Sequence record: NC_104190.1
Reading direction: 5' to 3' (one strand)
Origin: Escherichia phage IME178
DNA length: 64,000 nt
Part shown: in pieces, positions 36,230 to 64,000 of the stretch
How positions within the stretch are numbered: position 1 is the stretch's first letter
Layout: the number at the start of each line of letters is the position of its first letter
Position numbers and translations under genes: made by a program
Notes under the pieces: model-generated
What the model was told of the DNA's origin: nothing
Seen by the model: only the letters and a program-made list of their open reading frames with translations
Database searches by the model: none

Positions 36230-38377
36230 TTACTTACTTGCCTTTAATTCCGCAATCTCAGCTTCCATCGCTTCGATCCTCTGCATTAATACCTGCACAA
36301 CGTGCATGGTATCCAGAAGCATCGGCGTGGTGTCCAGCTCCTTCTGCTCCACAACCTCTCCTGGATTATTGCCAACATATTTGCGCGTCTTAACATATAA
36401 AGGCTCAACAACCTCTGCTTGCTGTGCAATCACGCCATGCCGAACTCGATTTTGTTCGTCATTGTCATAAATGAACTCTACAAATTCCAGCCCTTTAATA
36501 TTAGAGTATGATTTGTCAACTCCAACAGGGGCGATGCCGTGTTTTACACGTGAGTCAGAAGTACCATTTTTTGTATAACTAAAGTTCCCGTAATCAGTCG
36601 AACCATATATTTGACCATCAATATCAAAAAAGTAACGACAGAATTTTCCATTATCTCCACCGACCACCATGCAAGCTGTACCGAAGGCATTATTACCTGG
36701 TATGTACATATGGAGCCCTATCTTGGTGGGATATCCGTTGGGGCGATATCCACCAATAGAATAACCACGAACTAGTGTGTCTGAACCGCTAGCAATGGCT
36801 ACCCGATCCATGCCGTTGGTAGTCAGGTTGTCTATTCCAGCATCCGTAATGCCATTCCATGTGCCCATAGGCGTATTCATACGGAAGGTATTAATCTTAC
36901 CCGATTGGCGGAAGTCTGCCGTACCATCTTCGTAAAACTTATAAGAGTGCTTAGCGGAGCCCTCAGCCTCAATAATCGCAGCCCCCGAGGAGCCCCAGAT
37001 AGTATCAGAGTATAGACGAGCAAACCGCTTACCTGCTGGGTTGGAATATTCAGATACTACTTCACCACCACGAACGGAGGTATTCTGCGGAGGTGCGCTA
37101 CTATCTGCATTCTTAACACTCCATGATGTATTTGCTGCAACGAAACCACCCGACGCACGGATTACCCACACACCGACAAAGTTTCGTGTAAGAATTTCAT
37201 CATTTGATGTTCCGTAAATTGGACTTGAACGTGAGGCGTCAAAATTTAGTGTATTATAGCGCCCAGATAATGCAATATTTCCTGTACTTGGAATCGCATC
37301 CCCATCACCATTAGGAAAAATCGCATTATCAACAAAGAATGCACCACTAGCAGTAGAGCCAAATACCTGGGCGTAGCTAGTACTTGAGTAGCTAGGAACA
37401 GCAGCAGTAATATTAGGTGCAGCAGATTCAAATAGCTGGCCATTTGCACCACTATTTCCACCATCTCCACGACCATAAAGAGCGCGTATTGATCCCTCCT
37501 GCACCCCATTCTTATCTGGAACACGAAAAGTTGTTGTCCCATTTCCTGATGAGTACTTACCGCGCTGAAATTTATCAGCCAGCCATTTAGAATCATCTAT
37601 AGCACCCACCATTTGAGCGTAAGCCCAAAGCTCCGGCCAGTCAGCCCTGTTAAGAAGCTGCCCATCAGAAACTACCTCATAAGGTTGAATATACGCACGA
37701 CTATCGCGAAGGTGAAAATCACCTACACCATAGTTCATGACACCATTCATTGTGGGTCCTACTGTGCCAGTATTAATTTTGTTCTCCACCCAACGCTTAG
37801 TTACAGCATCATAATCATTAACGGGGTCTCCCGCAAGGGGAGTAGATCCAATAGGTCGCACATTTAGCCACGCAGCTGCGCGATCTGCTAAATCTGATAA
37901 ATTATTTTCAGTCAATAGGCTTTCGTCTTTTGTTGGCACATTATAACTTTGTCTAAAAGCTTCTTTTGATACTACTCCAGTACCTCCTTGTTCTATAGAA
38001 AGTGCAGTGGTTAAACCTGTTAAAGATTTAATAGTTGAGTTGGCACCATCCATGTCTATACTAGCAAATCTTGACCATGCAGTCCATGAATTGTAAAAAG
38101 ATCTACTATATATCTCATTACGATTATAAGGTAAGTAAATTTGAGTACAAGAAGTCGCTAAATTGCTTGCATTATTTTTTAAAACTAGTAATGTACCTGC
38201 AGCCGCAACAGGATAGTTAAGAGAAGTAGGAGAGTTAGCATTTTCAGATTGCCAATACTTTCCATACACACTCCCATCAAGTGTATTTAAATTTGTTCCT
38301 GTAGTAATTAAACCATATACAGGTAAAGCGGCTACATCAGTAGCCTTTAAGTTAATTTTATCAATTCTAAGAGCCAT
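36230..38377 (-). CDS. L-shaped tail fiber protein with C-terminal intramolecular chaperone domain
   Basis: 715 aa; Gly/Ser-rich fibrous body; C-terminus ...VQVLMQRIEAMEAEIAELKASK resembles the self-cleaving chaperone domain of T5 pb1-type fibers. Confidence 0.7.
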   Translation of the reverse strand: MALRIDKINLKATDVAALPVYGLITTGTNLNTLDGSVYGKYWQSENANSPTSLNYPVAAAGTLLVLKNNASNLATSCTQIYLPYNRNEIYSRSFYNSWTAWSRFASIDMDGANSTIKSLTGLTTALSIEQGGTGVVSKEAFRQSYNVPTKDESLLTENNLSDLADRAAAWLNVRPIGSTPLAGDPVNDYDAVTKRWVENKINTGTVGPTMNGVMNYGVGDFHLRDSRAYIQPYEVVSDGQLLNRADWPELWAYAQMVGAIDDSKWLADKFQRGKYSSGNGTTTFRVPDKNGVQEGSIRALYGRGDGGNSGANGQLFESAAPNITAAVPSYSSTSYAQVFGSTASGAFFVDNAIFPNGDGDAIPSTGNIALSGRYNTLNFDASRSSPIYGTSNDEILTRNFVGVWVIRASGGFVAANTSWSVKNADSSAPPQNTSVRGGEVVSEYSNPAGKRFARLYSDTIWGSSGAAIIEAEGSAKHSYKFYEDGTADFRQSGKINTFRMNTPMGTWNGITDAGIDNLTTNGMDRVAIASGSDTLVRGYSIGGYRPNGYPTKIGLHMYIPGNNAFGTACMVVGGDNGKFCRYFFDIDGQIYGSTDYGNFSYTKNGTSDSRVKHGIAPVGVDKSYSNIKGLEFVEFIYDNDEQNRVRHGVIAQQAEVVEPLYVKTRKYVGNNPGEVVEQKELDTTPMLLDTMHVVQVLMQRIEAMEAEIAELKASK

Positions 38378-38386
38378 TTTAATTCC

Positions 38387-38692
38387 TCATGCCCACATGC
38401 GAACAGGTGTTTCTGGGTTTACTATAAATTTATCTAGTATAGAGAGATCAAAATCATCAATATTCATAATACGCAGATTAACGTGATATCCTTCTTGCAC
38501 TACATACTCAATATCCTCTATATTTTGGTACTCTGTTAAGGGTTTTACAGGCTGACTAATAGTACCTATAAAATCAATACTGACATTTTCACAGTATAAA
38601 CTACCTGTTTCTTCATCTAAACTAAAGCCAAATTTTATCAAATTAATTTTCATTTCATCAGCATTAGTAAATTTTAGATATAAATCTTTCAT
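38387..38692 (-). CDS. hypothetical protein between the two tail-fiber genes
   Basis: 101-aa ORF, co-oriented. Confidence 0.4.
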   Translation of the reverse strand: MKDLYLKFTNADEMKINLIKFGFSLDEETGSLYCENVSIDFIGTISQPVKPLTEYQNIEDIEYVVQEGYHVNLRIMNIDDFDLSILDKFIVNPETPVRMWA

Positions 38693-38738
38693 TATAGAAT
38701 CCTTAATTTTATGGGAGCATTATATAATGCTCCTGTAC

Positions 38739-40928
38739 TTACCGTAAGCCATTAATCTGATCATTATTTAAGGCCCTATACCATACTCGGAAATTCTTAA
38801 TATGATATACAAATTTAGAAGGGGTAGGAGATGGTGATGCACCTAACCTAGACGGAATACCTGTCAAACTCACGGGAGTACTAGTAGATTTAGCAGTTTT
38901 ACCATTAAAATAGTTGCTTATTTCATTTCCAACTATTTTTTGAGCATAGGTCATAGGAGGTAGACTTTCTATATCTGGAATAGCTAAGGTTGGCCCTGTA
39001 CTAGATCTATATGTTCTTATAGTGGCATTATCATCGCTATCACAGCGGCAGATAATGTCATACCTAGAACCTCTTACTTGCATAACTTCTACATAACTAG
39101 TATAAGGTCGTACTTTACAATTAAATTCAAAAGATACTGTGCGCTCAAAGTAGTCTGCTAGGGTTCTATAGCCGGCATTATCTGGTATACACCACCATTC
39201 ATCTGCTGTTCTAGTAGTAGTGGTATTAGTACTATTACGGATGTAAGAAGTTGGAGCTATGCCTTCCTCAACCTGTATACCCCAAATGTAGAAACCAGAA
39301 ACACCATCCCCCTCATAGACAGCAGTAGTAGTAGTTTTAGCCATCTGGAGTCTAAATATAGTGCTTTGACTTGCAGTGGCTGCAAAAGAAATCCAAATTC
39401 TATATATACCTCCAGTTAATCTCTCATACCCCCCTCTAATATTACTAGCAGAACCAGTTGTTACAACAGTTTCATTTTTAATATCAAAAAACATACCAGC
39501 AGTTGTACCAGAAGCTACACGTAGATATACTAAACGATTTGCAGTATCATCTTTAACGTAGGCAGAGTAACAATAAAAAGTATCAGCAGTCAAAGATATT
39601 CCTTTATCGTTGCAGTAGTGCTCGCTGTTACTGGTACTCTCGGTAAATTTAGTCATCAACATTTCGCCGGTAGGACAAGCCGAAGCATTAGGGGTTGTAA
39701 TAACTAGATTACCACCAGTAATTGCTTCTGAATTAGTATATAAATTAGTACACTGAGACTCCATTAATAAACCTTGCTTTTCAAATCTAGGTTCATTAAT
39801 ATCTGCAAAACACATTTTACCACTTTTATCTATATAACTGGCGGTAGTTGAGCGAGTAAAATTTGCAGATTTTGTTGGCAATTCCAGAGTTACATCATTA
39901 ATTGTTGCTAAATCGTAAGGGGCCATACCAGATAATAATCTCATATCATCAGTTAAAGGTACCCAAACATCCGGATAGGGGACAGGTTCATATATAATAA
40001 TACTAGCAGCAGAAGCAGCGGCGGCAGCTTCAGAAGCTTTAGCATTAATTTCAGAAGCTTTAGCATTAGTTTCAGATGTTTTAGCATTAGTTTCTGATGT
40101 TTTAGCATTAGTTTCTGATGTTTTAGCAGCATTTTTACTTGCTAAAGCATCTGCGGCACTTCCAGCAGCTGCATTTTTACTTGCTAATGCGTTAGTTTCG
40201 CTAGTAGCAGCATTCGTCTCAGATGTTTTAGCATTAGTTTCAGAAGTTTTTGCTGCTGTTTGTGATTTAGCAGCAGCATTTTTACTTGCTAATGCATTAG
40301 TTTCGCTAGCAGCAGCATTCGTAGCCGAATTAGCTGCAGCTAATTCGGAAGCTTTAGCATTAGTTTCAGAAGTCTTAGCGTTAGTTTCAGAAATTTTTGC
40401 TGCTGTTTGTGAAGCTGCTGCTGCAGTTTTACTTGCTAATGCATTAGCTTCACTAGTAGCAGCATTCGTCTCGGAGGCTTTAGCTTTGGTTTCACTAGTC
40501 TTTGCATTAGTCTCAGAGGTTTTTGCATTAGTCTCAGAGGTTTTAGCCTTGGTTTCACTAGTCTTTGCATTAGTCTCAGAGGTTTTAGCTGCAGCTGCTG
40601 ATTCTGCAGATTTAGTAGCTGATGCAGCAGACTTAGTAGCGGACGTAGCAGATTGAGTAGCAGAAGCTTCAGAAGCTTCAGCAGAAATAGCAGCTTCCTG
40701 TTCAGAGTTCTTAGCATTAAGCTCTGAAGTCTTAGCAGCTATTTCGGAGTCTTTTGCAGCTGCAGCAGACTTAGCTGCAGCCTCAATAGATGATACTAAC
40801 TCACTTGCAGTAATAGAGCTAATAGAGTTACCAAGAGTTACTGTATATCTAGGAAATTTACTAGCAGTAGCTTTAGTATCATCAATATTTAATATCTGTT
40901 GTACAATAATCTTAGTAATTACTGCCAT
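38739..40928 (-). CDS. tail fiber protein with Ala-rich heptad-repeat shaft
   Basis: 729 aa; long array of SETNAKT-type heptads then a globular C-terminal region. Confidence 0.6.
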   Translation of the reverse strand: MAVITKIIVQQILNIDDTKATASKFPRYTVTLGNSISSITASELVSSIEAAAKSAAAAKDSEIAAKTSELNAKNSEQEAAISAEASEASATQSATSATKSAASATKSAESAAAAKTSETNAKTSETKAKTSETNAKTSETNAKTSETKAKASETNAATSEANALASKTAAAASQTAAKISETNAKTSETNAKASELAAANSATNAAASETNALASKNAAAKSQTAAKTSETNAKTSETNAATSETNALASKNAAAGSAADALASKNAAKTSETNAKTSETNAKTSETNAKASEINAKASEAAAAASAASIIIYEPVPYPDVWVPLTDDMRLLSGMAPYDLATINDVTLELPTKSANFTRSTTASYIDKSGKMCFADINEPRFEKQGLLMESQCTNLYTNSEAITGGNLVITTPNASACPTGEMLMTKFTESTSNSEHYCNDKGISLTADTFYCYSAYVKDDTANRLVYLRVASGTTAGMFFDIKNETVVTTGSASNIRGGYERLTGGIYRIWISFAATASQSTIFRLQMAKTTTTAVYEGDGVSGFYIWGIQVEEGIAPTSYIRNSTNTTTTRTADEWWCIPDNAGYRTLADYFERTVSFEFNCKVRPYTSYVEVMQVRGSRYDIICRCDSDDNATIRTYRSSTGPTLAIPDIESLPPMTYAQKIVGNEISNYFNGKTAKSTSTPVSLTGIPSRLGASPSPTPSKFVYHIKNFRVWYRALNNDQINGLR
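40037..40796. repeat. degenerate 21-bp tandem repeat array inside tail fiber gene
   Basis: unit gttttagcattagtttcagat and variants repeated >20 times; encodes (S/A)ETNAKT heptads on minus strand. Confidence 0.8.
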
Positions 40929-58245: not shown

Positions 58246-59459
58246 TCTTTATCTCCCTCGGTGGAACCTTGAGGTCTACCACCTTCTTGACCGGATACGC
58301 CTGTTGCAGAACCAGCGACGTTAGCAGGAATACGAATCTTATTCATCTGCTCATCATCTAAAGGCTCAAGGTTCAGCTCTAAACGAGCTTCGTTACCAGT
58401 TATAATACCATTATTAACCAATGAGGTTAAATGTTTAGCCTCAGATTCTTTATCTGGTGTTAATGCAGCTACTTCCTTAGTATTAGGAGTAATCTTATAA
58501 CCAAAAAAGAAAGTAAGAGAACTAGTCAGCTTGTTCAGCATAGGGATGATAGTCATGTAATAGAACAGTTCGATGTTTGGTCGAATGTTCGCGTTATTAC
58601 CACCATCAAGTAGCACTTGCGGAACACCAAAGGCTAGACAGATAGATTTATTAAATCCTTCGATGTCTTCCTTAAAGTCTAGATCTTTAAAAGAGGATAT
58701 TTGGGAGTACGGTTTAGCTTTCATACCACCATCTAGAATCAGGACAGAAGACTGACCCGTACTAGGATTATAATCGAGTTGTAATTCTTCTTGTTTACGC
58801 TCACGCAATTTCTTGTTCAGAATTTCATCCGTCTCAAGAATAAGACCAATCACGGTTCCGTTATCGAGAAACTTCTCTTTAAAGTTAAGCATCTTGGAAC
58901 GCTTCTCAAGAGAATCAATAACAGTAGCAACACGAGATTGTCCAGAAATTTGAGAATTTGTGCCACACACGTAACTGTTATCCTTTATAAAGATAATCTC
59001 ATCTACGCGATAGTCTATCTGGTTATTAAATATAAATTTTTTGATAAACTTATTGGCATCTGCCTCTACTTGCATTAGTGCAGCAGGGACATGATAAAGT
59101 GCTGTGCCATCCCAATAGATGTATGCACAACCTTCAAAAAGTAGGTCAGTGACTACAAGTCTACGGAATGTGCTTATATCCATGAATGGATTAGGTCGTA
59201 CATTTAAGAGAGTGTCTAGAGTCTTTGCCTTGATGCCATTGGCATACGTGACAATATTATATTTATCTCCGACAGTATAAGAACACTCCGCCGCACTATC
59301 TATAACCATATTAGCAGTTCTATTGAGAATCTCAATTTTACTGTAGGCTTGTCCAGTGGTAAAAGGCTTACGGTTAGTGCGATGACTAACTGGTTCCATG
59401 TCTCTTATAATACGTTGACCCGGATTTAGCTTTTCAGTAATCCAGCTTTTAAAACCCAT
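58242..59459 (-). CDS. portal protein (T5 pb7-like)
   Basis: 405 aa; size and position between terminase and capsid genes. Confidence 0.6.
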   Translation of the reverse strand: MGFKSWITEKLNPGQRIIRDMEPVSHRTNRKPFTTGQAYSKIEILNRTANMVIDSAAECSYTVGDKYNIVTYANGIKAKTLDTLLNVRPNPFMDISTFRRLVVTDLLFEGCAYIYWDGTALYHVPAALMQVEADANKFIKKFIFNNQIDYRVDEIIFIKDNSYVCGTNSQISGQSRVATVIDSLEKRSKMLNFKEKFLDNGTVIGLILETDEILNKKLRERKQEELQLDYNPSTGQSSVLILDGGMKAKPYSQISSFKDLDFKEDIEGFNKSICLAFGVPQVLLDGGNNANIRPNIELFYYMTIIPMLNKLTSSLTFFFGYKITPNTKEVAALTPDKESEAKHLTSLVNNGIITGNEARLELNLEPLDDEQMNKIRIPANVAGSATGVSGQEGGRPQGSTEGDKE

Positions 59460-59896
59460 TATAAGAACCTTGCGAATCCTGATTTTGTTTCAGTCTTGAC
59501 TTGTGTCTTTTCTTGAGGATTCTGTAATTTGTCTTTCTGCTTTTGAACCCACACTTTTTGCTTATTAGCAGAAAATAAAGGAGGTTCTTTTGTGTAAACC
59601 TTATGTAATAATTGGTGATGGTGTACACAAAGGGTAACAGTGTCTTCTACTAGCTCATGCCTATATCGATCATAGAATGCCGTCCTATTTGAAAGGACTA
59701 TTTCTTCGTCAGTGAAATCCAATTGGAGTTCTTTAGCAAATTTTTTAACTAGTAGAGACACCGTATGGTAATGATGAAGCTCTAATTCTTCAGCACAACC
59801 GCAGATAGCACATTGAGAGTCTTTTTTATATTGACTTTTTATTCCGTCTCTCATAAGGGATATAGCATCGCGTTTATATTTTATATTGCTTGCCAT
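59459..59896 (-). CDS. HNH endonuclease
   Basis: CAICGC...LELHHYH...CVHHHQLLH; start set at MASNIKY (RBS gaggagaa); stop shares TAATG with portal start. Confidence 0.65.
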   Translation of the reverse strand: MASNIKYKRDAISLMRDGIKSQYKKDSQCAICGCAEELELHHYHTVSLLVKKFAKELQLDFTDEEIVLSNRTAFYDRYRHELVEDTVTLCVHHHQLLHKVYTKEPPLFSANKQKVWVQKQKDKLQNPQEKTQVKTETKSGFARFL

Positions 59897-60010: not shown

Positions 60011-61327
60011 TTATTTACCACGGGAAATAGAGTAAATTCCATAGCGCAGAGCATCACAGAGGTGAGAGTTAGCATCATGACGTGGTTTTTCACGTGATAA
60101 TTTTTCTTCACCTTCTTGGAAATCCCACTTGTAATTCTGCAATGCGTGAATTAATGAGGAACATGAAGCATCCACAATAATCTTGCCTTGTTGGAATAGT
60201 GCTTGCAAGCATGCTAGACCATCTAGGACAGATTTTTTAGCTGGAGCTGATGCAATTTCATGTTCATAAGCTAAGTCCTGACGGAACTGAGCTGCTGCAG
60301 AGTCAACAAAAATACGATCAACTTTATAACGATCTATACAGTGCTGAATATACGCAGCATGTTGCGCTGTAGTTTTCTCCGCCTGCTGGTACTCTTCTAA
60401 TACATAGTAAGTATCTGTATCATAGTGGTACTTAATAGTAAGAACTGCTGTAGGATCACGATAACCAACGTCAATACCAAGCAACGTTTCGAATGCTTCA
60501 TCATCTTTAAAGAAGTGACGCATACCTTTGAGATCTTTAACATGGTCGATGGCATTAAAGGTATCGAAGATCTGACCTTCGAATACAGAAAAGTCAGCCT
60601 CATATTCCTGGCGGAAGTAGTTTTTACTAACTGTGCGACGTGCTTCTTCGATATCATTCAGATCAGCACGTGGGTTATCACGATATGTACCATGAATAGA
60701 TACCCAGTTAGGTAATGTATCATCAAATCCATAGGCGTAAAACTCTTTAAACCAGTTACCCCCACGAGGAGTGGAAATAAATAGAGCCTTAGAATTAGGC
60801 TTATCTAGAGTAGGACGCAACTGAACTCTAAAGGCATCACCACCCACATCTGAAATTGCCGCCTCATCGAATATGATAAAGTCATATGAACGTCCAACTG
60901 CGGAGTCAGCCTGCGCCGCAGAAGCTAGTTTAAACAGAGAACCATTAGCCAACTCTATTTCTTTATCTTTAGCGTTTTCACGTTCAGTTTGTAGGCCATA
61001 CTTCTTAATAAGACCACGAATCTGAGACCATCCAATGTTGGCCAGTGAGTAGTTAGGAGCAACTACTAGCACCTTTACGTTAGGCTCCAGCAATTTTAGG
61101 AATCCAAGTGTATATGCTATAAAGGATTTGCCTACACGGCGTGACACACACGCCGTTACAAAACGATGTCTAGGGTCCTCTAAAGCATTGATGATTGCTA
61201 TTTGAGGACCATTAGGTGTAATACCTTCTTGTGCTAGTATTCCTGAAACAGGTAGACGAAAGAAACGTTTATCTATCCCGAAATCAATAACATCTACTGT
61301 GTTAACGTAGGGTCTTGATACTTCCAT
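60011..61327 (-). CDS. terminase large subunit
   Basis: 438 aa; Walker A RRVGKS, Walker B FIIFDEAA, C-terminal nuclease acidic residues. Confidence 0.85.
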   Translation of the reverse strand: MEVSRPYVNTVDVIDFGIDKRFFRLPVSGILAQEGITPNGPQIAIINALEDPRHRFVTACVSRRVGKSFIAYTLGFLKLLEPNVKVLVVAPNYSLANIGWSQIRGLIKKYGLQTERENAKDKEIELANGSLFKLASAAQADSAVGRSYDFIIFDEAAISDVGGDAFRVQLRPTLDKPNSKALFISTPRGGNWFKEFYAYGFDDTLPNWVSIHGTYRDNPRADLNDIEEARRTVSKNYFRQEYEADFSVFEGQIFDTFNAIDHVKDLKGMRHFFKDDEAFETLLGIDVGYRDPTAVLTIKYHYDTDTYYVLEEYQQAEKTTAQHAAYIQHCIDRYKVDRIFVDSAAAQFRQDLAYEHEIASAPAKKSVLDGLACLQALFQQGKIIVDASCSSLIHALQNYKWDFQEGEEKLSREKPRHDANSHLCDALRYGIYSISRGK

Positions 61328-61809
61328 TACTTCTTACCTCCAGTAGCTAGGGAAGTAATTAAGTCCATGTAGTTTTGATCCCCAGCTCCAGCAATAATAT
61401 TATTCTGGATATTGGTCTGGTTAGCTGGAGTACGGGCTGCTGCCTTCACTTTCTCCAATTCTACCATCATTTTCATTTCTTCCATCTTCATCTTGTGTGC
61501 CTTCCAGAGAATGTCCATAATATCCTGGTCAGAACCCATGCCGGTTTCTTCTAGTTCCTCTAGTTTACGCTTAATAACTTCATCTAGAACACCAAACAAA
61601 CGATCTCTGTTACGGAATCCACTTTCCATAAAAATATCGTTTAAGTAGTTCTTAACTTCGCTACGATTCATAATATCTCGGAAAGCAATTTCGGACATTC
61701 CAAGACTACGTGCGGCAGAAGGCACATCACTCCCGCACTGTAAATAAGCTTCAATCACATCCATCCCTTCAGGGGACATAAGATCTGGTACTAATACATC
61801 ATTTGCCAT
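61327..61809 (-). CDS. putative terminase small subunit
   Basis: 160 aa directly upstream of large terminase, N-terminal HTH-like segment; RBS aaaggagga. Confidence 0.45.
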
Positions 61810-61819
61810 ATTTCCTCCT

Positions 61820-63577
61820 TTAGGTAAGGCGTTGAACTGTTACTCTTAATCTAGGTAGGAAAACTGCACTACCTAAACTTACGTGCATAACTACCCCTAA
61901 CTCTACATTTCCGTTCCCCAGATTTTTAGCAGTGTATATAAAACTATTTCTACTTAGGGCATTGTTAGGTGTGTATCTAAAAGCAGATGTAGTATGAAAA
62001 GGTACTAAATACCCTACTGGTAGTGTTAAAATCTGGTGGAATATCGCGTCTCCATTGCTATAACTATATGCTCTTCTTCCTTGCACTTGAAACACACCGT
62101 TATTCCATGTATTAGCAGGAACACCTGCACAGTTAAGATTACCTGATATAACTTCAGTGGTAAGAATTACTGTAGCATTGCCACCCGGTATACCTAGCCC
62201 AATAGTTGATAAACCAACGTATCTATCTCCTGTTCCCGGGTAGCTAGGAGTAATATCATCTCCCATATAAGAACTACCTACATTTCCACCAAAAAGTCGT
62301 AATGGAACTGCTGAAGGCCCCCAAACAACCCCGTGTTCATTACCGATAGTATTATCATTAGAGTTTACGTACCATTGCTTACCAGCTCCGAATTTGTAAA
62401 TACTAATTTGAGACTTAGCCCCTCCATAGTCTACAGGAGACCATAAACTCCCGTTACTAGAACCTACAAGTTCACACCTTGCAGTGGTATCCCCAAAGGC
62501 CCCAGTGTACGCTGCATTATTTCCAATATATTCCATATCTGGTCTATAACCTAAGTTACCGAAAGCGTTCTGGTTAATAAACTTGTATCCAGTATTGGGA
62601 AGACTAACCCCTTTAATTATGAAATTAGAAGGAGATATAAGAATATCTGAACCAGTAAAAGGATTACCAGAGATACTCATACCACCATTTGAGTATCTTA
62701 AATTCAAAACGTACCAAATAACTTTAGTAGGGGTTATGTTATACCAATCCTGTAATATTGTAGCGTTACCAGATTGGTTAGCTAAATTAGTTGTAGAACC
62801 CCTACAAACAAATCTGTTACCTCCATCATGATACATAGTATTTACATTACCAGGAAGACCTTGTCTTACCCCACCATACCCACGTATGTTAGAGTTACAA
62901 ACATAAAACCAATCGTGCCCTCTGTGTGCTGATCCTAAAGGAGACATCCATCCTGGGTCCCAGTAATATTGGTTATTACCATCTATAGGTACTGTACTAC
63001 TATTAGTAGGGAATCCTAACTGTGCAAAAGCTTCTGCAACAGTAATACCTACTGGAGCTCCTGCACCTGGCCTAACTATACCATGATACGTACTATGTAA
63101 GGTAGTACCCCCTGTACCATTCCTAGAAATAGATTCTTCATGTCCTATAGATGGATTATAGTTATATGTACCAGATGCCAGGCTATTACCAAATGCAAAT
63201 CCACTAGTCTGGGAAACACTAGCAAAAGATCTAAAAGGATCTGCTTGAGTGGCAACTATAGTTTGACCCACCTTACTCTGAGTACCATTAAGAAAAGCCC
63301 TATGAGTACCATTTATCTCAATAGCAGTTAGTATAACTCTACCAGGATCGTTAGATTTAATATTTATTATGTCAGCGGGCATTTGACATACAAAAAACCC
63401 ATTACCGGCATCACCTAACCCAGACTCATAAGTACCATCAACTAGGACAAATGGCATGTCACTATGAAAAATACTATTGGCATTTGGACTATAGTGACGA
63501 TTAATGTCACCACCAGATTCAGTATTTAAAGATAGTACGGTCTTACCATCGCTATATTTTCCAGCGAAAAAACCCAT
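61820..63577 (-). CDS. receptor-binding tail protein (T5 pb5/Oad-like by position)
   Basis: 585-aa Gly/Asn/Ser-rich ORF adjacent and divergent to an Llp-like lipoprotein gene; RBS taggagat. Confidence 0.55.
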
Positions 63578-63602
63578 ATAATCTCCTATTATAAAAATGT
63601 AT

Positions 63603-63631
63603 TTGCTTTCATCCCTCTATTTTGCTATAAT
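63603..63631 (+). promoter_or_regulatory. T5-type early promoter for llp-like gene
   Basis: TTGCTT-17-TATAAT then AGATTCATAAATTAGAAATGGAGAG leader. Confidence 0.55.
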
Positions 63632-63662
63632 AGATTCATAAATTAGAAATGGAGAGATAAAT

Positions 63663-63929
63663 ATGAAAAAGTTTGTGATTGCACTAGTTGCCGCAGTTAT
63701 GTTATCTGGTTGTGCACCTGCTCCCAAACCATTTTGTACTGGATTTGTAAAATCTTTTGGGGGTGCGGGAGAAGAACATTATGGCCTCAAGGTTCAAAAA
63801 GTTCGTATTAAGGGAGATCGCTTCCCAGTAGTACAACTCCGTACTAAATTTGGGTGGTGGGATCTCAGTCAGTTTGACCTTAAATATGGTGATTGTAAAT
63901 TTAAACTAGAGCAATCTAACTACCTGTAA
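63663..63929 (+). CDS. llp: Llp-like lipoprotein (receptor-blocking superinfection exclusion)
   Basis: 88 aa; signal peptide with lipobox LSGC; divergent from the receptor-binding protein gene as llp/oad in T5. Confidence 0.65.
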   Translation: MKKFVIALVAAVMLSGCAPAPKPFCTGFVKSFGGAGEEHYGLKVQKVRIKGDRFPVVQLRTKFGWWDLSQFDLKYGDCKFKLEQSNYL

Positions 63930-64000
63930 TTAGTATAAAGCAAAAAGACATCTAAGTAAACTAAATTTTTTATTTTTTGGACGGTATATTGGCAGAAACC

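Follow-up and report, generated by a model that had tools for sequence, protein, structure and literature searches.

The divergent gene pair formed by a receptor-binding protein (RBP) gene and the lipoprotein gene llp in Escherichia phage IME178 (NC_104190.1) most likely constitutes a BF23-type Tequintavirus cassette for BtuB recognition and superinfection exclusion, a reading drawn from sequence comparisons to which we assign a probability of about 0.93. The window referred to throughout is the whole stretch of 64,000 nucleotides that was analysed. By sequence, the RBP grouped with the RBPs of BtuB-binding phages (56-74% identity, versus 27-33% to those of T5 and H8), and the lipoprotein Llp was identical to the Llp of BF23 (BF23_00171) at 88 of 88 residues.

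The gene pair and its protein families

The RBP gene, a 585-aa ORF, and llp, an 88-aa ORF, both started with ATG in the ORF list and in the raw sequence, and were divergently oriented with 85 bp between them (Table 1). The gene order was llp on the plus strand, followed on the minus strand by the RBP gene, terS (61327-61809) and terL (60011-61327), with a gene for a 145-aa HNH protein and then the portal gene beyond terL on the minus strand. The llp-RBP-terS-terL synteny matched T5, BF23, DT57C and SPC35 and corresponded to the late-region order of T5. The RBP gene and llp are genuine genes rather than chance ORFs, since both matched PHROG families and near-identical proteins were found across many phage records. 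Two plus-strand ORFs within the RBP gene (62583-62831 and 63140-63331) were unsupported and were taken as chance ORFs. The composition profile at the locus was unremarkable, with a GC content of 0.35-0.42.

Table 1 Features of the RBP-llp locus and their positions in the window
Feature	Position	Strand	Basis
RBP gene (pb5/Hrs family, AKFV33 variant, BtuB clade)	61820..63577	-	ORF and PHROG 4815
Shine-Dalgarno AGGAG, 5 nt before the RBP ATG	63583..63587	-	read from sequence
Divergent intergenic control region, 85 bp	63578..63662	.	nucleotide identity to BF23, DT57C and SPC35
Putative sigma-70 promoter for llp	63603..63631	+	sequence and conservation
Shine-Dalgarno GGAGAG, 6 nt before the llp ATG	63651..63656	+	read from sequence
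llp, encoding the 88-aa precursor of a lipoprotein for receptor blocking (superinfection exclusion)	63663..63929	+	LPAM_1 and PHROG 1119

The HNH protein (145 aa, 59459-59896, minus strand), which sits between terL and the portal gene, shared 97% identity with BF23_00167, the 'nicking endonuclease' of BF23, and was lengthened to 174 aa from a TTG start by the mechanical ORF call. The 277-aa endonuclease T5.154, located between terL and the HNH gene in T5, was missing here and likewise in BF23.

The RBP belongs to the pb5/Hrs tail-tip family of Markadamsvirinae. It matched PHROG 4815, 'receptor binding tail protein', over residues 1-585 (E = 1.3e-274), a family into which T5 pb5 falls as well, and it matched the solved T5 pb5 chains 8b14_B and 8a8c_B at E = 2e-50; searches of Pfam and NCBIfam with the RBP gave no match. 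The Salmonella phages PK7/PK8 had the same RBP at 100% identity; in the GenBank phage protein search, the RBP of AKFV33 was 96.9% identical, and, among the BASEL phages, those of DaisyDussoix/Bas31 and IrisVonRoten/Bas32 were 98.5% and 97.1% identical, respectively. About 100 GenBank phage records, including SSP1, SP01 and fp01, carried an RBP that was at least 95% identical. All three receptor classes kept the first 40 residues of the RBP and its C-terminal ...QRLT, which may form the part that docks onto the straight fibre.

Several irregularities were observed in the deposited records of related RBPs. In the phiLLS record (KY677846, 84592-86346), the RBP is labelled 'super-infection exclusion protein'. 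T5-like RBP genes were also found in records named 'Listeria phage LM 4-11-1' (OR846838, 98% identical) and 'Campylobacter phage A148' (MG065642, 68% identical), which suggests that these records are mislabelled or contaminated. In the RefSeq record of EPS7 (NC_010583), the RBP CDS is absent between terS and the Cor/Llp gene, and tblastn located the RBP at 38153-39931 as three frame-shifted pieces, which probably stem from sequencing errors in the record.

Llp is an Llp/Cor superinfection-exclusion lipoprotein. It matched PHROG 1119, 'Cor superinfection exclusion protein', at profile positions 1-78 of 78 (E = 1.8e-26), a family that T5 Llp matches as well (E = 1.1e-19). The protein begins with MKKFVIALVAAVMLSG followed by C, and its lipobox L-S-G-C occupies residues 14-17. 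In Pfam, it scored 23.9 bits against LPAM_1 (cut-off 20), and Pfam and NCBIfam returned nothing for Llp beyond this generic lipoprotein signal. The initial annotation had described a 585-aa RBP beside a lipoprotein with a clear lipobox, and the ORFs, the LSGC motif and the LPAM_1 match agreed with that description. The predicted precursor comprises a signal peptide of residues 1-16, a lipidated Cys17 and a mature protein of 72 aa (63711-63926). In E. coli, the +2 sorting rule predicts the destination of a lipoprotein, and with Ala at residue +2, Llp would be expected in the outer membrane.

Lipoproteins at least 95% identical to Llp were found in about 180 phage records. Identity was 98.9% to the Llps of DT57C and SPC35, about 67-69% to that of EPS7, about 48-50% to that of phiR2-01, and about 25-30% to that of T5, with much of the last located in the signal peptide. 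A published primer for the llp of BF23/DT57C, BF23Llp42-F (GGAGAGATAAATATGAAAAAGTTTGTAATTGCACTAGTTGC; PMC4728585), matched the window at 63651-63691 with one mismatch. Cys25 and Cys78 (mature positions 9 and 62) each lie close to one end of mature Llp. Cys78 was invariant and aligned with the C-terminal Cys of T5 Llp, and the N-proximal Cys was present in all aligned Llps, with the T5 position offset by a few columns. T5 Llp carries a Cys11-Cys58 disulfide (PMC9586334), and by analogy a Cys25-Cys78 disulfide may form in the IME178 protein. A PDB sequence search with Llp gave no real match, the T5 Llp chains 8a60_B and 7qjf_A included. The single-sequence AF2 model of mature Llp (mean pLDDT 47.8, pTM 0.34) was too poor for a fold comparison with T5 Llp, and AF2 is reported to be inaccurate even for T5 Llp (PMC9586334).

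The intergenic region was 96-98% identical at the nucleotide level to those of BF23, DT57C and SPC35, and the homologous regions of T5 and BF23 carry annotated divergent promoters. A candidate llp promoter consisted of the -35 hexamer TTGCTT (63603-63608), a 17-nt spacer and the extended -10 TGcTATAAT (hexamer 63626-63631), and coincided with the annotated T5 lpp promoter. Both hexamers were invariant in the alignment with BF23, DT57C, SPC35 and T5; the TG of the extended -10 was shared by the four BtuB-type phages and absent from T5. A consensus promoter and terminator scan of 63400-64000 returned no intergenic promoter and no terminator, and missed the candidate because its -35 fits the consensus at only three of six positions. 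The conserved element probably represents a sigma-70 promoter for llp, which fits early Llp expression. The Shine-Dalgarno AGGAG of the RBP gene was kept in BF23, DT57C and SPC35, and mostly kept in T5.

Receptor assignment and competing readings

The RBPs of Markadamsvirinae form three clusters, BtuB, FepA and FhuA, that predict the receptor, and the 'vast majority' of these phages target BtuB, with T5 as the unusual member (PMC8594841). In the same study, the terminal receptor listed for both Bas31 and Bas32 is BtuB (S5 Table), a dependence that was established via knockout plating. Mondigler et al. 2006 is cited in PMC4728585 and PMC10644984 for the use of BtuB by BF23 and the blocking of BtuB by BF23 Llp. 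Mutations that inactivate btuB make hosts resistant to DT57C, and DT57C llp supplied in trans cut plating more than 100-fold for DT57C and BF23 alike while T5 was unaffected (PMC4728585). Exclusion of BtuB-dependent phages, with T5 spared, has likewise been reported for expressed BF23 Llp (Mondigler et al. 2006).

We compared the homologous loci of T5, PK7, BF23, DT57C, SPC35, phiR2-01, EPS7, H8 and Bas34. The alignment against FhuA-, BtuB- and FepA-dependent relatives that the initial annotation had proposed separated the BtuB binders, at 56-74% identity (DT57C 73.5%, SPC35 71.8%, BF23 Hrs 67.1% and phiR2-01 55.8%), from the FhuA-type pb5 of T5 (NC_005859) at about 30% (30.1%) and the FepA-type RBP of H8 at 27.5%. 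That annotation had further proposed that the pair sets receptor specificity, that the lipoprotein blocks the same receptor after infection, and that this receptor is likely other than FhuA. The comparisons bear out each proposal at the level of sequence: the RBP falls in the BtuB clade with the RBPs of four BtuB-dependent phages, Llp is 100% identical to a BtuB blocker, and the receptor can be named as BtuB from the near-identical RBPs of Bas31/Bas32 and the 30% identity to T5 pb5. The RBP had also been singled out as shorter than T5 pb5. The difference is real (585 versus 640 aa) but nothing unusual, its length being normal for the BtuB clade (585-595 aa, versus 640 aa in T5 and 637 aa in H8).

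The FhuA-inserting loops of pb5 were mapped onto the alignment (L1 tip Gln115, L2 tip Phe170, and L4 residues 570-590). The RBP segments equivalent to L1, L2 and L4 were nearly the same as those of DT57C, and were unlike those of T5 and of BF23/SPC35, with the L4-equivalent being 6-8 residues shorter than in BF23/SPC35. The RBP differed from BF23 Hrs by about 33%, most strongly at residues 161-280, where identity to BF23 was 28-55%. Given this divergence, the fine specificity, for example the BtuB loops or alleles contacted, could differ from that of BF23.

A published analysis arrived at another receptor for the same RBP variant. In the paper on phage Cit2 (OP745948), the RBP was described as 96.9% identical to the T5 RBP, FhuA was inferred as the receptor, and a 'decoupling' from the BtuB-type Llp was proposed (PMC12980165). 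The Cit2 RBP was 97.3% identical to the RBP in the window, which shares only 30% identity with authentic T5 pb5, so the stated 96.9% cannot mean T5 itself. T5_ev219 and T5_ev212 carry this RBP variant at 96.9-99% identity, with T5_ev219 at 96.9%, and the 'T5' reference used for Cit2 probably came from a T5_ev-named, T5-like or AKFV33-type phage. Judged by these identities, the FhuA inference for the Cit2 RBP is unsound. It is accordingly extremely improbable that the IME178 RBP binds FhuA in the manner of pb5 beside a mismatched BtuB-type Llp, as the placement of the Cit2 RBP with 'T5' would have it. The initial annotation had regarded a full-length alignment with a FhuA-specific pb5, combined with loss of infection on fhuA mutants, as a sign of FhuA use. 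Such an alignment does occur, as the two proteins are homologues, but at just 30% identity and with L1-, L2- and L4-equivalent loops that differ from those of T5, and Bas31/Bas32, with the same RBP type, are experimentally BtuB-dependent. FhuA was rejected as the receptor on the measured identities.

The AKFV33-type RBP might instead use BtuB on E. coli K-12 and another or an additional outer-membrane protein on Salmonella, O157 or Shigella, through residues 161-280. These residues are the least conserved part of a mosaic RBP within the BtuB clade, and phages with this RBP have been isolated on many genera. However, Llp stays identical to a BtuB blocker, which would be maladaptive were another receptor used, BtuB is highly conserved, and the host breadth of T5-like phages is set mainly by lateral tail fibres and O-antigen (PMC4728585, PMC8594841); nothing in the data points to a second receptor, and we regard this reading as very improbable. 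The names given to Llp raise a different question, as RefSeq and PHROG call it 'Cor superinfection exclusion protein' and T5 Llp shares PHROG 1119 with it. We nevertheless give next to no credence to the alternative that Llp does not block BtuB and is either a FhuA blocker of the Cor type or some generic membrane lipoprotein: the protein is identical to BF23 Llp throughout, the 98.9%-identical Llp of DT57C excludes BtuB phages and not T5 (PMC4728585), and the roughly 25-30% identity to T5 Llp lies largely in the signal peptide.

Mosaic structure of the receptor-binding protein

The BtuB-type cassette lies next to well-conserved genes. In the identity profile, terL and terS were 90-98% identical at the nucleotide level to those of T5, BF23 and SPC35. 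Against T5, nucleotide identity fell to 42-56% throughout the RBP gene and llp, which indicates that the entire cassette was replaced relative to T5. Against BF23, DT57C and SPC35, identity fell to 56-87% inside the RBP gene only and was 95-98% again across the intergenic region and llp. A recombination breakpoint between hrs and llp has been described by Golomidova et al. 2016 (PMC4728585), and the identity profile reproduced this breakpoint between the RBP gene and llp.

Within the RBP, residues 1-80 and 321-400 were 92-100% identical to SPC35 and 65-82% identical to DT57C. Residues 161-280, the least conserved in the BtuB clade, were 28-62% identical to BF23/SPC35 and 55-72% identical to DT57C. 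Judged by these regional identities, the RBP is mosaic in composition within the clade of BtuB binders. Together with the steady 95-98% nucleotide identity of llp and the intergenic region, this indicates that recombination occurred repeatedly, with a breakpoint separating the RBP gene from llp.

A more far-reaching reading is that the AKFV33-type RBP is a recombinant with an SPC35-like scaffold, DT57C-like loops and its own residues 161-280, swapped independently of an invariant llp, that contacts BtuB differently or uses a second receptor on non-K-12 hosts. We consider this unlikely. If it were true, the AKFV33-type RBP might tolerate BtuB loop variants, or phase or escape mutants, that defeat BF23-type RBPs.

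Relatives, proposed mechanism and significance

The last 25 kb of the window (39001-64000) showed about 94-95% nucleotide identity to fp01, AZ21/AZ23, EC148 and PK7. In this structural-gene half of the window, IME178 lies close to the species boundary with respect to the deposited genomes of Tequintavirus. Most of the best matches did not cover the initial 1.2-1.5 kb or so of 39001-64000.

At the RBP-llp locus, there was essentially no difference from the AKFV33-type group (AKFV33, PK7, SSP1, SP01, Bas31 and Bas32), in which a 585-aa RBP at 97-100% identity is accompanied by the same Llp. The hrs-llp locus of BF23 (genome OR083247; Mondigler et al. 1996, 2006) has the same divergent order upstream of terS/terL, with a 100% identical Llp, about 96% nucleotide identity in the intergenic region and llp, and an RBP of the same clade; it differs in its Hrs, which is 595 aa versus 585 aa, 67% identical, and distinct in residues 161-280 and the L4-equivalent loop. 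DT57C and DT571/2 (Golomidova et al. 2016, PMC4728585) have demonstrated BtuB dependence and a 98.9% identical Llp. The DT57C RBP, at 73.5%, is the closest characterised RBP outside the AKFV33 group and shares the L1-, L2- and L4-equivalent segments as well as the RBP/llp breakpoint, but its residues 1-80 and 321-400 are less like the IME178 RBP than those of SPC35. T5 pb5 (oad) and T5 Llp belong to homologous families and share synteny and promoter architecture with the pair in the window, whereas the RBP (30%; 640 versus 585 aa), Llp (about 25%) and the receptor (FhuA versus BtuB) differ. The T5 structures 8a8c, 8b14, 8a60 and 7qjf serve as a mechanistic template for the pair.

In T5, pb5 puts four loops into the FhuA lumen and leaves the receptor unchanged, and the periplasmic Llp binds the FhuA plug in a conformation that is not the native one and makes the extracellular loops EL7 and EL8 fold inward over the pb5 site; such 'jamming' of the plug has been proposed to be general to TonB-dependent transporters (PMC9586334). 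The IME178 RBP would sit as a monomer on the tip of the central straight tail fibre. By analogy with pb5 and FhuA, it would bind the outer-membrane, TonB-dependent vitamin-B12 transporter BtuB irreversibly, with surface loops inserted into the barrel lumen, and this binding would trigger opening of the tail tip and then DNA ejection. Llp would be expressed early, cleaved by signal peptidase II between LSG and C, and lipidated at Cys17, and would then bind BtuB and make it unusable for the RBP. Llp has Ala at +2 and, as in T5 Llp, two further cysteines close to the ends of the mature protein, so the logic of T5 Llp would be expected on BtuB: Llp probably jams the BtuB plug and folds the extracellular loops inward, as T5 Llp does on FhuA. 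The structural picture given here of how BtuB is bound and blocked is modelled on T5 throughout. As an outcome, superinfecting BtuB-dependent phages would be excluded, and progeny would be kept from adsorbing to debris.

The RBP-llp module is already known as the commonest type among T5-like phages, and its presence in IME178 brings no new biology. Its value lies in annotation, as the receptor is predictable as BtuB from the sequence. This prediction would be useful in phage cocktail design because loss of btuB makes hosts cross-resistant to most T5-like phages as well as E colicins, and the identity of Llp aids the prediction of which phages would be excluded. The analysis also flags a published FhuA mis-assignment for the same RBP variant, that of Cit2.
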